Positions 7,853 through 12,610 of a DNA stretch of 24,703 bases are shown piece after piece. Both the position numbers and the translations under genes were made by a program. The stretch is taken from assembly GCA_012511525.1 (NCBI GenBank), contig JAAZFW010000099.1, positions 1 to 24,703 on the forward strand, in the 5' to 3' direction. The notes under the pieces were generated by a model, which was given only the letters and a program-made list of their open reading frames with translations, made no database searches and had not been told where the DNA came from. Positions within the stretch are counted from its first letter, which is position 1. Each line of letters starts with the position of its first letter. Source of the stretch: Clostridiaceae bacterium. GTDB taxonomy: Bacteria > Bacillota > Clostridia > Saccharofermentanales > UBA5734.

Positions 7853-8320
7853 ATGCGCTGTCCCTTTTGCGGACACGATGAGGACAAGGTGATCGATTCC
7901 CGTCCGGCGGACGATGGTGCGGCGATCCGCCGCCGCCGTGAATGCATCAACTGCGGGAACCGTTTCACGACCTATGAAAAAATTGAGAACCTGCCTTTGA
8001 TGGTGATCAAGAAAGACGGTTCGCGCCAGCCGTTCAACCGGGACAAGCTGATTTCCGGCATCATGAAAAGCTGCGAAAAGCGTCCGGTGTCGACCGAGCA
8101 GATCGAATCGCTGGTCGATGCCATCGAGAGCCGATACCAGAACAGCCTCAAGCGGGAGGTCCAGTCCAGGGAAATCGGCGAGCAAGTCATGGAAGGGCTG
8201 AAGCAAATCGACGAGGTCGCCTATGTTCGCTTCGCCTCTGTCTACCGCCAGTTCAAGGATGTCAGCTCATTCCTGCACGAACTCAACGAAATTCTTGGCA
8301 AGCAGGAGGAGATCCGCTGA
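7853..8320 (+). CDS. nrdR: Transcriptional repressor NrdR
   Basis: Zn ribbon MRCPFC...[17 protein letters not shown] plus ATP-cone ([16 protein letters not shown]...[13 protein letters not shown]). RBS GAGGAGGTGA. Confidence 0.97.
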
Positions 8321-9030
8321 TGAAAAAAGCACTCATCGTCGACGACGACCCCAACATCAGTGAACTGCTGCGCCTTTATTTCGATAAGGACGGTTTTGCC
8401 GTCATCACGTGCCTCGACGGTGAGAAGGCGGTCGAGACCTTCAACCAGGCCAATCCGGATGTCGTCATATTGGACCTGATGCTGCCCGGACGCGACGGCT
8501 ACGACATCATGCGCGACATCCGGCGCTCGTCCGATGTTCCGATCCTCATGCTGACCGCCCGCGGCGATACGCTGGACAAGGTCGTCGGCCTGGAACTGGG
8601 CGCGGACGATTACATCCAGAAACCCTTTGAGCCCAAAGAACTGATGGCGCGCGTCAAGGCTGTGCTGCGCCGCTATGAGAGCGGCCAGGAACCTAAATTC
8701 GTCCCCGGTGCGCGGGAGGGCGGCGAGGTGGCTGACTACCCTGGTTTGCGCGTCGACAAATCGCGCTACACGGTCAGCGTCAACGAACGGGAACTCGAGA
8801 TGCCGCCCAAGGAGCTTGAACTCCTTTTTTTCCTCGCCACGCACCCCAATCGCGTTTTTACGCGCGAGCAGCTGCTGGAAAATGTTTGGGGCTATGACTT
8901 CTATGGCGAGTCGCGCACGGTCGATGTCCACATCAAGCGCATTCGCGAAAAGCTCGAAGCGGCCGGACCGCATCCGTCCTGGTCGATCAAGACCGTCTGG
9001 AGCGTCGGCTACAAATTCGAGACGGCCTGA
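8320..9030 (+). CDS. OmpR/PhoB-family DNA-binding response regulator
   Basis: Receiver domain (IVDDD, LDLMLPGRDG, MLTAR, GADDYIQKPF) plus winged-helix domain (RVFTREQLLENVWG, RTVDVHIKRIREKL). Start overlaps the nrdR stop (TGATG). Confidence 0.95.
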   Translation: MKKALIVDDDPNISELLRLYFDKDGFAVITCLDGEKAVETFNQANPDVVILDLMLPGRDGYDIMRDIRRSSDVPILMLTARGDTLDKVVGLELGADDYIQKPFEPKELMARVKAVLRRYESGQEPKFVPGAREGGEVADYPGLRVDKSRYTVSVNERELEMPPKELELLFFLATHPNRVFTREQLLENVWGYDFYGESRTVDVHIKRIREKLEAAGPHPSWSIKTVWSVGYKFETA

Positions 9031-9039
9031 CACGAAGCG

Positions 9040-10545
9040 ATGGCAAGGCGCTTGTTTTCCCGGTCCTTCTATGTACGGACGATCGTCCAGCTGACATTGG
9101 CCATCCTGGTTGTTTTTTTGGTTCTCAGCCTGGTTTACTACGCCATCGTGTCGCGCAACAGCATGCGCCAGCAAGCAAACAAACTGCTCAACGCAGCCCA
9201 GGCCATCTCCAGCGCCATTGCGATCAACCTCAGTGCCGACGGCGATATCGAGAACCCGCAGGTGAACAGCTTTGTGAATTTCACCGCCCGTTCCAGCGGC
9301 GCGATCGTCTGGATTATCAATTTCAGGGGCGAGATCATCCTGCAGACCGGTTTGCCGGCGGTGGTGCGCGAACGGCTGGAACGATCCGAGCGCGGTTATT
9401 TCGTCCTGCCCGATGAATTCCTGGCAGCGAAAAGCAGCGGCACCTCCGGCATGACCCAGGGCGGTGACTTTTCCGGCCTGCTGGCCGACAGCGGGGCCTA
9501 CTGGCTGTCGGCGGCCTACCCGGTTCCAACCGGGAATTTCGGCTACCGCGGCGAAATACAGCTGCACATGCAGACGCAGGACGTCAATTTTACCGCTTTC
9601 CTGATGACCAACGGCCTGATCGTGTCATTTCTGGTCGCGTTCGCCACCGCGCTTGTGATCAACGGCATCATCTCGCGCAACATCACCCGCCCGATCCGCC
9701 TGCTCTCCGAAGCGGCCGAGAAGGTGACCCGCGGCGATCTGAGCGCTCGGGTCGAACTGCCGAAAAAGGCGCCTGGACGGCTGCAGGGTTTGGTGACCGA
9801 TGACCTGACCGGCCTGGTCGAGACAATGAACAGCATGATGGACAAGTTGGCCAACCAGGAACGCGACCGCAAGGACTTCATCTCCAGCGTCTCCCATGAC
9901 CTGCGCACCCCGATCACCACGATCCGCGGTTTTGTCGAGGGCATGCTCGACGGGACGATCCCGCCGGAACGATCGCCGCACTACCTGGAGATCGTTAAGC
10001 AGGAGGTTTTGCGTCTTCAGACCTTGGTCAACACGATGTTCGAGGGCACCGTTCTGGAAAGCGCACAAAAGATCAACCAGACGGTTTTCGACATCAACCA
10101 GGTTATCAAGGAAGATATCATCGGTCTGGAGTCGTTGCTGTCCGAAAAGCGGCTCGACGTCCAGACGGAATTTCTAAATGACGACAACGGCAGACTGCTC
10201 GTCCTCGGCGACCGCGAGGCGATCAGCCGGGTCGTATACAACATCGTGTCCAATGCCATCCATTACACGCCTGACGACGGCATCATCGCCCTGACGACGC
10301 GCAAATCAGACCGCCCCAAGGAGATTGAAGTCGTTATCGACGATTCAGGCCCGGGCATTCCTGAACAGGAATACCCGTATATCTTCGACCGCTTCTATAA
10401 AGTCGACAAGTCACGCACGTCCAAGGGATCCGGACTGGGGCTTTATATCTGCCGCACCATCCTGGCCGCCCACGGCCAGAAAATCCGGGTGGCGCGCAGC
10501 GATCTCGGCGGGGCCCGTTTCATTTTCACGTTGCAAAGCCCCTGA
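9040..10545 (+). CDS. Membrane sensor histidine kinase (2 TM, HAMP, HisKA, HATPase)
   Basis: H-box SVSHDLRTPITTIRGF, N-box NIVSNAIHY, G boxes DSGPGI / IFDRFYK / GSGLGL. Two hydrophobic segments flank an external domain. No obvious cytoplasmic PAS domain. Confidence 0.95.
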   Translation: MARRLFSRSFYVRTIVQLTLAILVVFLVLSLVYYAIVSRNSMRQQANKLLNAAQAISSAIAINLSADGDIENPQVNSFVNFTARSSGAIVWIINFRGEIILQTGLPAVVRERLERSERGYFVLPDEFLAAKSSGTSGMTQGGDFSGLLADSGAYWLSAAYPVPTGNFGYRGEIQLHMQTQDVNFTAFLMTNGLIVSFLVAFATALVINGIISRNITRPIRLLSEAAEKVTRGDLSARVELPKKAPGRLQGLVTDDLTGLVETMNSMMDKLANQERDRKDFISSVSHDLRTPITTIRGFVEGMLDGTIPPERSPHYLEIVKQEVLRLQTLVNTMFEGTVLESAQKINQTVFDINQVIKEDIIGLESLLSEKRLDVQTEFLNDDNGRLLVLGDREAISRVVYNIVSNAIHYTPDDGIIALTTRKSDRPKEIEVVIDDSGPGIPEQEYPYIFDRFYKVDKSRTSKGSGLGLYICRTILAAHGQKIRVARSDLGGARFIFTLQSP

Positions 10546-10553
10546 TGGCGCCT

Positions 10554-10587
10554 TGTTCATAGTGCATTCACTTTTTTTCGCTAGAAT
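10554..10587 (+). promoter_or_regulatory. Putative activator-dependent internal promoter for the htrA-like gene
   Basis: TAGAAT at 10582-10587 with no recognisable -35. TTCAT (10556) and TTCAC (10567) repeats lie 11 bp apart in the -35 zone. AT-rich gap between genes. Confidence 0.35.
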
Positions 10588-10619
10588 GGAAAGTACCTTT
10601 CCGGATGGGAGGATTTTTG

Positions 10620-11954
10620 TTGAAGACCAAAACAAAATGGATCGCGGGCCTGTTCGTCTTGCTGCTGCTTTCAGCGATCGCATCCTCGCTTTTAACCGCC
10701 GCGGTATTGCTCCGTTTTATCCGAACCGGCCGGACCTGGCCCTGCCTGGCCCAGGTTACCGGCCTGGACAGCTTGAGAATCGTCTCACAGAGCACGGAAC
10801 CGTCTGCGACGGGCGGAACCGAACGGACCCCGACACCCAAGCCAAGCGCGACGCCTACCCCCCGGCCGACAACGACTCCGTCACCCAGCCCGACACCTGA
10901 GCCGAGCGCGAGTCCGACGCCATCACCGACGCCATCGATGCATAACGCATCGGAGACGCTGGCGTTGTGGCAAACCCAGCGGCTGGTTCAGCAGATCTAC
11001 GACATGATCGAGCCGTCTGTAGTCGGGATTCGGGTCGAGGTGCCCGCCAGCGGTGCCCAGACCACCCGAACCAACGAGGCCAGCGGCCTGATCATCGACA
11101 ACCAGGGGACTGTTGTGACCAGTGCCTCAGTCCTGTCGATCGCCCTGGACAGATCGGGCAACCTGCTGCCGGCGGCGCAAGTCCTTGTGTTCCTGAACGG
11201 CTCCGACAGCCCTGTCACGGGGCGTGTCGTCGGCCGCGACATTGTGACCGGGCTGGCCGTGATCGACCTTTCAGAGGAGTCCGGCAAGCGGATTTTCCAG
11301 CCGGCGCGGCTTTCCGGCAGCTCGGACATTCGGGTCGGGCAGATGATCCTGAGCGTCGGCTTCCCCGATCTTCTCAATGAGGCCGGCAACCTTTCCAGCG
11401 GCCTGATCAGCGCGGTTAAGCGCAGCGTCGTCCTGGAGAACGGCACCGAGGTCCAGATGATCATGACGGATCTGCCGTCTGCCGGGTTTTGTACCGGCGC
11501 CCCGCTGCTCAATTTGCAGGGCGAGGTGATCGGCCTGGCCAACTGCGGCCTGGCCCGCGAATCATATGACACGCAGATCTATGCGCTGCCGACCAGCGCC
11601 ATGCTGGCTGTCGCGCGGGATATTGTGCGCGACAGCGAGCATGCCGAGGCCAAAGCCTGGCTCGGTCTGACTGTGCTCAAGCAGGACAGCTTCCTGGAAC
11701 TGCAGCGTCTGTACCGATTCCCGGACGGCCTTTATGTCAGCAGCGTGGTCGCGGACAGCCCGGCTTACGCGGCCGACGTGCGCAAAGGCGACATCATCAC
11801 GGCGATCAATGACCAGCCGGTTCTGGACGCGGCGGAGCTGAGCGCCCTGCTCAAGGATGCCGAGCCTGGAACGGCGCTTCGCCTCAGCGTTTTCCGGAAG
11901 GCGGACAGCCAGACCCTGGAGATCCTGGTTTATTTGCAGGAGCTGATCCGATGA
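10620..11954 (+). CDS. HtrA/DegP-like trypsin-fold + PDZ membrane-anchored protein, predicted catalytically inactive
   Basis: Trypsin-like scaffold (SVVGI, SGLIID..G.VVT, GRD...LAVI, VGQMILSVG, IMTD, PLLNLQGEVIG) plus PDZ (WLGLTV, GLYVSSVVADSPA, GDIITAIN). TTG 10620 is 7 nt after GGGAGG; track start is ATG 10605. Triad residues are substituted. Confidence 0.88.
   Translation: MKTKTKWIAGLFVLLLLSAIASSLLTAAVLLRFIRTGRTWPCLAQVTGLDSLRIVSQSTEPSATGGTERTPTPKPSATPTPRPTTTPSPSPTPEPSASPTPSPTPSMHNASETLALWQTQRLVQQIYDMIEPSVVGIRVEVPASGAQTTRTNEASGLIIDNQGTVVTSASVLSIALDRSGNLLPAAQVLVFLNGSDSPVTGRVVGRDIVTGLAVIDLSEESGKRIFQPARLSGSSDIRVGQMILSVGFPDLLNEAGNLSSGLISAVKRSVVLENGTEVQMIMTDLPSAGFCTGAPLLNLQGEVIGLANCGLARESYDTQIYALPTSAMLAVARDIVRDSEHAEAKAWLGLTVLKQDSFLELQRLYRFPDGLYVSSVVADSPAYAADVRKGDIITAINDQPVLDAAELSALLKDAEPGTALRLSVFRKADSQTLEILVYLQELIR
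10827..10937 (+). repeat. Pro/Thr/Ser-rich low-complexity linker coding region
   Basis: Encodes TPTPKPSATPTPRPTTTPSPSPTPEPSASPTPSPTPS. Confidence 0.9.
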
Positions 11955-12610
11955 TTGATGCCGAACCTTTAAAGCGCGACGGGCTGCGCCGGCAAGGCGC
12001 CGTTGTCATGCGGCTGCTGCGCCAGACTTATCCTCAGGCTGTGTGCACCCTGGACCATGCGGAGCCCTGGCAACTGCTGGTGGCCGCCATCTTGTCGGCT
12101 CAGTGCACCGACGCCAGGGTCAACGTGATCACACCGGCCTTGTTCAGTCATTTCCCCGATGCCCAGGCGATGGCCAAAGCAGACCAGGCCAAGGTCGAAG
12201 AGCTGATCCGCAGCTGCGGGCTTTTCCGCACCAAGGCTCGTTCGATCATCGCCAGCAGCCGGGAGATCGTGGCGCACCATCTCGGCCGGGTGCCGGACAC
12301 GCTCGAGGCTCTGACCTCGCTGCCGGGCGTCGGGCGCAAAATCGCCAACCTGATCCTGGGCGACGCCTACGGCGTACCCGCGATTGTCGTCGACACCCAC
12401 TGCGCCCGCATCTCCGCCCTGATCGGCTTGACAGACCACACGGACCCTGCCCGGGTCGAGAAAGATCTGGCCGAGGTTCTCGATCCGGCCGATTGGATCG
12501 ACTACGGGCACCTGATGGTCGAGCATGGCCGCACCCTGTGCGTGGCTCGCCGGCCTGACTGCGCCAACTGCCCGTTGGCCCCCCATTGCCGTTATGCCGC
12601 CGGATCCTGA
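11951..12610 (+). CDS. nth: Endonuclease III (HhH-GPD DNA glycosylase/AP lyase)
   Basis: LLVAAILSAQCTDARVN, HhH LPGVGRKIAN, VDTH, and [4Fe-4S] motif C-X6-C-X2-C-X5-C. ATGA overlap with the upstream gene. Confidence 0.96.
   Translation: MIDAEPLKRDGLRRQGAVVMRLLRQTYPQAVCTLDHAEPWQLLVAAILSAQCTDARVNVITPALFSHFPDAQAMAKADQAKVEELIRSCGLFRTKARSIIASSREIVAHHLGRVPDTLEALTSLPGVGRKIANLILGDAYGVPAIVVDTHCARISALIGLTDHTDPARVEKDLAEVLDPADWIDYGHLMVEHGRTLCVARRPDCANCPLAPHCRYAAGS

Follow-up and report, generated by a model that had tools for sequence, protein, structure and literature searches.

A conserved HtrA-family pseudoprotease with a predicted response-regulator-type promoter, encoded beside a two-component system in a member of the Saccharofermentanales

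Members of the HtrA family are textbook protease-chaperones, whose stand-alone chaperone role has usually been tested only with engineered Ser-to-Ala mutants; in Escherichia coli, protease-dead forms of DegP in which the catalytic Ser is mutated retain chaperone-type activity. Some htrA genes are induced by two-component systems encoded adjacent to them, which have very small regulons, as described for CssRS and CiaRH (PMC12826053) and for CutRS (PMC12802291). A protease-inactive HtrA of Bacillus subtilis still improves fitness, a benefit of the chaperone type (cited in PMC12826053; PMC12802291). The present work concerns a gene for a membrane-anchored HtrA-family pseudoprotease, referred to here as pHtrA, which is found on contig JAAZFW010000099.1 (assembly GCA_012511525.1) of an organism recorded as a Clostridiaceae bacterium and placed by GTDB in the Saccharofermentanales (UBA5734). 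The whole of this stretch of 24,703 nucleotides was analysed and is called the window; all coordinates are positions in it, and the genes and elements listed are on the forward (+) strand. The protein is a natural case of an HtrA that has been kept long after the loss of its catalytic His and Asp, with a predicted dedicated promoter of its own and a live HtrA elsewhere in the genome, and its distinctive part is this promoter together with the neighbouring regulator/kinase pair.

The reading frame of pHtrA (10605-11954) is stop-free, and the gene itself is placed at 10620..11954 and codes for 444 aa, an assignment based on Pfam, HMMER, AlphaFold2/Foldseek and the relatives of the protein. The favoured start is the TTG at 10620, which lies 6 nt downstream of the Shine-Dalgarno sequence GGGAGGA (10607..10613) and gives the N-terminus M-K-T-K-T-K-W, matching the M/L-K-T-K-x-K-W of the relatives; the ATG at 10605, in the same frame, is a less probable candidate for the start. 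The N-terminal transmembrane anchor (10638..10721; Kyte-Doolittle maximum of 2.5 at residues 11-31, helix of residues 4-41 in the structural model) is followed by a low-complexity linker rich in Pro, Thr and Ser (10785..10937), whose length varies among the relatives and whose predicted local distance difference test (pLDDT) score is <50. From the sequence, the Lys-rich N-terminus predicts an N-in, C-out topology and, because the Lys-rich stretch and the hydrophobic helix are succeeded by a disordered linker, a membrane tether with the folded part of the protein lying outside the cell is predicted. This folded part shows the domain layout of the HtrA family, viz. a trypsin-like protease domain and one or more PDZ domains, the former at 11079..11537 (Pfam Trypsin_2, E 2.8e-18, and own-genome search) and the latter at 11661..11927 (Pfam PDZ_2, 3.1e-14, with further matches to PDZ_6 and PDZ). 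The PDZ domain is the best-conserved region of the protein, and the W-L-G of its carboxylate-binding loop (W352/L353/G354) is invariant in the clade of relatives and aligns to the WLGV of solved HtrAs. In an AlphaFold2 model (25 relatives; mean pLDDT 74) pHtrA adopts the HtrA fold, and the best Foldseek matches of the model are DegQ, DegP, MucD, the HtrA of Mycobacterium tuberculosis and DegS (E ~1e-22). The score of the protein with the Do-family model of NCBIfam (TIGR02037) is 118.5 bits, which is below the cut-off of 416.2.

In the HtrA/DegP proteins (MEROPS S1C) the catalytic triad is carried by the motifs TNxHV, SD(L/I)A and GNSGG, and at these places pHtrA has Ser, Gly and Thr instead. 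The Ser at the position of the catalytic His is encoded by TCA (11127..11129, in VTSASV), the Gly at that of the Asp by GGG (11250..11252, in VTGLAV), and the Asn-Ser of GNSGG is replaced by Cys-Thr (11490..11495, in FCTGAP), of which the Thr (ACC, 11493-11495) occupies the position of the nucleophile; a second conserved Cys, recognised from the clade alignment, is found in the motif G-L-x-N-C (11544..11546). An HMMER alignment with solved DegP, MucD and DegQ chains sets VTSASV, VTGLAV and FCTGAP opposite TNNHV, SDVAV and GN(S/A)GGP with high posterior probability. Based on sequence, profile alignment and fold match, which together define the equivalence of the triad residues, the loss of all three catalytic residues is confirmed at the level of sequence. 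These replacements, the two Cys residues, and an intact scaffold, PDZ domain, membrane anchor, ribosome-binding site and reading frame had all been put forward in a preliminary description of this DNA, and the codons, the HMMER and Foldseek comparisons, the Pfam matches, the hydropathy, the GGGAGGA sequence and the open frame bear it out.

The same loss is seen across the relatives, for which residues were counted in 40 non-redundant members of the clade (<90% identical to each other), it being understood that counts over related sequences are not independent. None of the 40 members has His in the His column, and Gly is present in the Asp column in 36 of the 39 members with a residue there. 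The Ser column contains Ser in 27/40, with A, T, N, Q, I, F or G in the remainder, and across the whole clade the oxyanion loop has lost its Gly-Asn. The protease domain has no invariant His, Lys or Ser, and because of this cleavage by an alternative catalytic mechanism is very unlikely; as judged from these sequences, pHtrA would be unable to cut protein and its nucleophile position would be free to vary. As a separate observation, the protein P0008 (>90% identical to P0007) is the only clade member seen with a His in the His column (TDAHV, versus TDARV in P0007), and its Asp is still Gly.

The clade of pHtrA proteins is sharply delimited. A search of 5.8 billion proteins recovered 27 cluster representatives with scores of 301-930 bits, after which ordinary HtrAs followed at 113 bits, and a profile search of 1.84 billion representatives recovered the same group together with more distant dead forms; in the top 150 hits of the latter search outside the clade the H-D-S triad is present in 125. 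In a species-level genome collection the gene was found in 25 loci. All organisms in these comparisons are metagenome-assembled genomes whose names are taken from record titles, and the carriers are titled Saccharofermentans, Mageeibacillus, unclassified Oscillospiraceae, 'Clostridiaceae' and Eubacteriales, mostly from anaerobic digesters. The relatives bear the database names 'serine protease Do' or 'S1-C subfamily serine protease', of which the name 'serine protease Do' is almost certainly wrong for this clade. No paper dealing with the clade was found in a literature search. Among 151 genomes of the same order, high-scoring dead forms are present in most of the window's own family and divergent dead forms in part of a second family, and the other two families contain only ordinary HtrAs.

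Protein identity across the clade is only 40-50%, and pHtrA is the fastest-evolving gene of the block extending from ftsZ to recG. Its ratio of nonsynonymous to synonymous substitution rates (dN/dS), determined against an orthologue of 79% identity, is 0.19 (0.15 for the protease domain and 0.12 for the PDZ domain), and in the same comparison nth has a similar value (0.21) and the kinase gene one of 0.06; all loci examined have an open frame. In a maximum-likelihood tree, obtained by a quick search and weak at its deep nodes, the core group and the divergent dead forms fall together, with an SH-aLRT of 100, in a single clade that lies among the active HtrAs. The triad His and Asp were lost long ago and the protein is still kept by purifying selection, in agreement with the earlier view that this is not a decaying pseudogene. 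Since the divergent dead forms have retained the Asp and lack the His, it is further suggested that the His was lost first and the Asp later. A different group of degenerate HtrA-PDZ proteins occurs in Lachnospiraceae (Roseburia, Blautia and others; loci L061:5647-6981, L064:5755-7080, L079:5779-7065, L083:5401-6684 and L085:4074-5375, protein P0044). In these the His is lost, the Asp is changed to Gly within T-G-I-A-V and the Ser loop has a one-residue deletion; the gene adjoins MutS2, with a divergently oriented OmpR regulator and a kinase ~2.5 kb away. A single ancient origin with these proteins is unsupported, as they form a separate, long-branched clade that has no regulator/kinase operon, although the deep nodes are weakly resolved, and a second, independent loss is suggested.

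The most informative result of this analysis is a promoter element of 34 nt (10554-10587), which is present in every spacer between the kinase gene and pHtrA and consists of TGTTCA(Y)-N4-(C)ATTCA(Y), ten bases, and TAnAAT. In the window it comprises a direct-repeat box, TGTTCA-N5-CATTCA (10554..10571), with a period of 11 bp, standing in place of a -35 sequence, and the -10 hexamer TAGAAT (10582..10587), which begins 10 nt after the box. Tandem half-sites 11 bp apart at the -35 position are the arrangement of OmpR/PhoB-type activators, and the box is predicted to be a site of this type. It is conserved in 29/29 loci and its spacing from the hexamer is fixed in all of them, the length of the spacer itself ranging from ~60 to 400 nt. 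A relaxed form of the pattern has exactly one match on the coding strand of each of the 29 loci, and this match is always in the spacer between kinase and pHtrA. When the window's own genome was scanned with a position weight matrix made from the orthologous sites, the pHtrA box scored best (29.3 bits vs 19.5 for the next site), with a slight circularity in that the matrix includes the own-genome site. In five other genomes the sole box without a mismatch is that upstream of the dead HtrA, and a search by box for further regulon members in six genomes gave only the pHtrA promoter as a good match. Four related genomes that have no pHtrA gene gave no match to the full element, and their matches to the box only were no commoner than those to a control pattern; nor was the element found in the genome G088, which has a divergent dead form; the box was likewise not found at the locus of the live HtrA or at the Oscillospiraceae loci, both of which are described below. 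From the conservation of this element, pHtrA is predicted to be transcribed from its own response-regulator-type promoter.

In one metatranscriptome run (X5), contigs 95-99% identical to the window cover 10548-10698, which includes promoter and start, and 11295-11726 in the protease domain, with a word depth of 5.5-8.5 over these regions versus 2-5 over the kinase gene or recG, a depth too thin for expression measurement. Public RNA runs were also searched for a transcription start; their Logan contigs are shallow, three of the four are probably DNA runs, and no start was readable. Near the start of the gene a hairpin (CCTTTC / GGGAGG, 10597-10613) would cover the Shine-Dalgarno sequence and recurs in the closest relatives (L008, L009, L018 and L088); its interpretation as an RNA thermometer was rejected, as its folding energy is no better than that of shuffled sequences (z = 0.28).

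The gene order FtsZ-NrdR-regulator-kinase-pHtrA-Nth-RecG is identical in every pHtrA locus examined, and the order of the ftsZ-recG block is kept throughout the bacterial order. The response regulator (8320..9030) is of the OmpR family, with a receiver and a winged-helix domain (Pfam Response_reg 1.3e-30, Trans_reg_C 3.9e-28), and is 73-94% identical in the 25 species loci. The sensor histidine kinase (9040..10545; Pfam and sequence) has a first transmembrane helix, an extracytoplasmic loop of ~150 aa and a second transmembrane helix, followed by HAMP, HisKA and HATPase domains, and no PAS domain. The locus therefore has the layout of the CssRS-htrA type, in which an OmpR-type regulator and a kinase with two transmembrane helices, HAMP and an extracytoplasmic loop lie beside an htrA-like gene. 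Downstream, the ATG of the endonuclease III gene nth (11951..12610; TIGR01083, 226.7 bits, above the cut-off) overlaps the stop codon of pHtrA, due to which nth is probably co-transcribed with it, and recG is perhaps on the same transcript. The stop/start overlaps, viz. TGATGA between nrdR and the regulator gene (8317-8323) and ATGA between pHtrA and nth (11951-11954), suggest translational coupling across functionally unrelated genes.

It would be incorrect to interpret this regulator/kinase pair as WalRK. The best NCBIfam matches of the regulator are MtrA and YycF, both below cut-off (YycF 239 bits vs 340), and the kinase matches the WalK model only from the DHp domain onward, with 172-196 bits vs a cut-off of 725. 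Another pair, on contig C90 (2809-5256), scores 251 and 330 bits with the YycF and WalK models, PAS region included, and is more likely to be the WalRK equivalent of this genome. In metagenome-assembled Oscillospiraceae genomes (L033:3490-6975 and L037:1-2160) the genes for a regulator (55% identical), for a kinase and for a triad-intact HtrA occur in the same order at a different locus, without a direct-repeat box, an arrangement that may resemble the ancestral live one.

Our preferred interpretation, to which we would give about an even chance of being correct, is that pHtrA is a regulated output of the two-component system and functions as an extracytoplasmic, membrane-tethered binder or holdase that does not cut. 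The neighbouring regulator/kinase pair would switch it on upon a cell-envelope or secretion signal, the direct repeat at the -35 position serving as the activator site of an OmpR/PhoB-type regulator for which the neighbouring response regulator is the obvious candidate. The product, in which the fold, the peptide-binding PDZ loop and a good part of the cleft persist and the catalytic chemistry does not, would then act by binding instead of cutting. Its PDZ domain and remodelled cleft could capture C-termini that are exposed, or secreted proteins that are unfolded, at the interface of membrane and wall, and thereby serve as a holdase or buffer; feedback by which it damps its own kinase is possible as well. 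What is inferred here is the choice of regulator for the box, the nature of the signal and the role as a binder. The possession of its own promoter and the persistence of the regulator/kinase pair in the absence of pHtrA are the reasons for reading it as a regulated output, and they make an obligatory third signalling component less likely. Of the original suggestion of a repurposed non-catalytic HtrA, the conserved pseudoprotease is upheld by the dN/dS value, the clade and the loss of the triad, whereas a chaperone or binder is the best guess as to its function and modulation of the kinase is only a possibility.

A number of observations weigh against this interpretation. In genomes G001 (family f2), G002 (family f3) and G003 (the window's own family), the order is NrdR-regulator-kinase-Nth-RecG and no HtrA-like gene is present between kinase and nth (loci L095, L093 and L092, respectively). 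As the pair persists without the dead HtrA in these genomes, it must have other targets, and none were found. Nor was the box found at other places, the regions upstream of the regulator genes included, and the neighbouring regulator is only a candidate for the protein that would bind it. Further, pHtrA begins only 75 nt past the kinase stop codon and read-through transcription from the kinase gene may also occur; the X5 contig spanning the box is of low depth, for which DNA carry-over or such read-through could account. One point in favour of the interpretation, a hint of shared evolution of pHtrA, kinase and regulator, is weak: after removal of the background of RecG, FtsZ and Nth, pHtrA's residual evolutionary distances show a correlation with the kinase's (0.46-0.59) and the regulator's (0.29-0.34) but not with NrdR's (0.12-0.13), yet shared fast rates could give the same pattern and no valid significance test exists for related sequences. 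The holdase function, lastly, is proposed by analogy only.

The regulator/kinase pair thus predates the dead HtrA or outlasts it, and does not need it. Its retention in G001, G002 and G003 therefore argues against an obligatory three-component system, in which the accessory gene would be expected wherever the pair occurs. The three-component signalling module envisaged in the preliminary description is not supported in that form: the adjacency of regulator and kinase genes is real, but the occurrence of the pair without pHtrA in two sister families and one genus of the own family, as well as the separate promoter of pHtrA, speaks against an obligatory third component. Two side observations at these syntenic places are that the kinase of G002 is extended at its C-terminus by ~100 aa, to 610 aa in total, and that G004 has a very divergent dead HtrA.

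If pHtrA were an accessory co-sensor of the neighbouring kinase, in the manner of WalRK-YycHI or MtrAB-LpqB, then a peptide signal bound at its PDZ domain or cleft would be relayed by it to the extracytoplasmic loop of the kinase. The adjacency of the two genes is conserved across the clade, both products are membrane-anchored with extracytoplasmic domains, the residual distances give a correlation of 0.50-0.56 between pHtrA and the kinase sensor loop, and regulon members that inhibit their own kinase are known (CpxP). However, the pair is kept at the same locus without pHtrA in the three genomes named above, in one of which (G003) the kinase can be aligned over its full length, sensor loop included, at 50% identity; pHtrA has its own promoter and is not simply coupled within an operon; and the whole neighbourhood, nth and recG included, is syntenic, so that adjacency says little. 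Based on these considerations we regard a co-sensor role as unlikely. We hold a similarly low expectation for a combined role, in which pHtrA would be both the sole dedicated output of the two-component system and an extracytoplasmic co-receptor, tethered to the membrane and receiving peptides or C-termini, with the PDZ domain and the Cys-bearing dead cleft reporting the folding or redox state of secreted proteins to the kinase; if true, this would amount to a self-contained non-proteolytic envelope-surveillance loop in strict anaerobes.

Another explanation is that pHtrA serves as a non-catalytic subunit or regulator of a live HtrA, whose activity would be tuned or targeted in mixed oligomers. 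HtrA proteins oligomerise via the protease domain, pseudoenzymes often regulate active paralogues, and MamO with MamE as well as the plant Deg5-Deg8 have been proposed as pairings of this kind. The assembly of the window's organism (2.57 Mb, 601 contigs, 94% complete) does contain, as the preliminary description had wished to see checked, a second and active-type copy, namely an intact, similarly membrane-anchored HtrA on contig C532 (L001 520-1923) with the motifs TNNHV, NDIAV and GNSGG; a small trypsin-like protein on contig C426 has an intact triad and no PDZ domain. However, the genes for the dead and the live HtrA are unlinked, on different contigs, and the box is absent from the locus of the active one, which leaves this explanation rather improbable.

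It is still more improbable that the remodelled site is a metal or redox sensor built on the two conserved Cys residues, which flank the former nucleophile. Precedents for such a site are provided by MamO, which binds metal in its degenerate active site (PMC4794232), and by CutS, in which an extracytoplasmic Cys pair is a folding/redox sensor (PMC12802291). Both Cys are kept in 24 of the 40 clade members; however, both are lost in 9 and one alone is present in 7, and the Mageeibacillus-type sub-clade, in which both are absent, retains the gene as well as the promoter. There is very little prospect, too, that pHtrA is still a protease with non-canonical residues, such as Thr or Ser with another base. 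The Ser found at the nucleophile position in 27 of the 40 members, and the S-G-G-P present in most of them, would speak for this; however, other members under the same selection have A, I, F, G, N or Q there, and the absence of an invariant His, Lys or Ser and the loss of the oxyanion Gly-Asn throughout speak against it. That pHtrA is a decaying pseudogene or an annotation artefact, as its low Do-family score and fast evolution might suggest, is refuted by the conservation data, viz. the open frame at all loci, the dN/dS value, the invariance of the PDZ loop and many other motifs, and the conserved promoter.

In this natural case a single protein, a single promoter and a single regulator/kinase pair suffice for a direct test of the non-proteolytic role. 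The hosts are abundant fermenters of biogas reactors, and the wiring of their envelope-stress response is also of some applied interest.

In comparison with the described systems, pHtrA shares with the proteins of WalRK-YycHI (with the terminal gene HtrC) and MtrAB-LpqB the property of being a membrane-anchored extracytoplasmic protein encoded immediately after a response regulator and a kinase. The Bacillus HtrC is an active protease. However, the pair next to pHtrA is not the best WalRK candidate of its genome, its kinase has no PAS domain and, in sister lineages, the pair is found without an accessory gene. With DegS and DegP of E. coli (MEROPS S1C), pHtrA has in common the fold, the order of domains and the carboxylate-binding loop of the PDZ domain, and DegS is likewise membrane-anchored, with a PDZ domain that senses C-terminal peptides. 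In contrast to pHtrA, in which other residues stand for His, Asp and Ser and the oxyanion loop is altered, these proteins have an intact triad and act by cleavage.

Among the characterised pseudoproteases of the HtrA family the closest is MamO (PMC4794232), which shares the HtrA/trypsin fold, a degenerate triad kept for a non-proteolytic role and an active paralogue in the same genome. It should not be inferred from this that pHtrA is a MamO: its score with NF040961 is 25.7 bits vs a cut-off of 800 and it has no invariant His, whereas MamO has a conserved His pair and a fused TauE-like domain. Further, pHtrA retains its PDZ domain, and it lies among cell-division and DNA-repair genes in place of a magnetosome context. 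In its wiring, pHtrA most resembles the CssRS-htrA/htrB system of B. subtilis, the CiaRH-htrA system of Streptococcus pneumoniae and the CutRS/CssRS-htrA systems of Streptomyces, in all of which the gene for an anchored, single-PDZ HtrA has as neighbours those for an OmpR-type regulator and for a kinase with a HAMP domain and an extracytoplasmic loop. A dedicated promoter, for pHtrA predicted to be of the regulator type, and few other targets are also shared with these systems (PMC12826053, PMC12802291), although the published motif of the Streptomyces CutR differs in sequence from the pHtrA box. Judged by this likeness of arrangement, the closest system would be a CssRS-type module with an HtrA as its output, the difference being that in pHtrA the output is without a catalytic triad.

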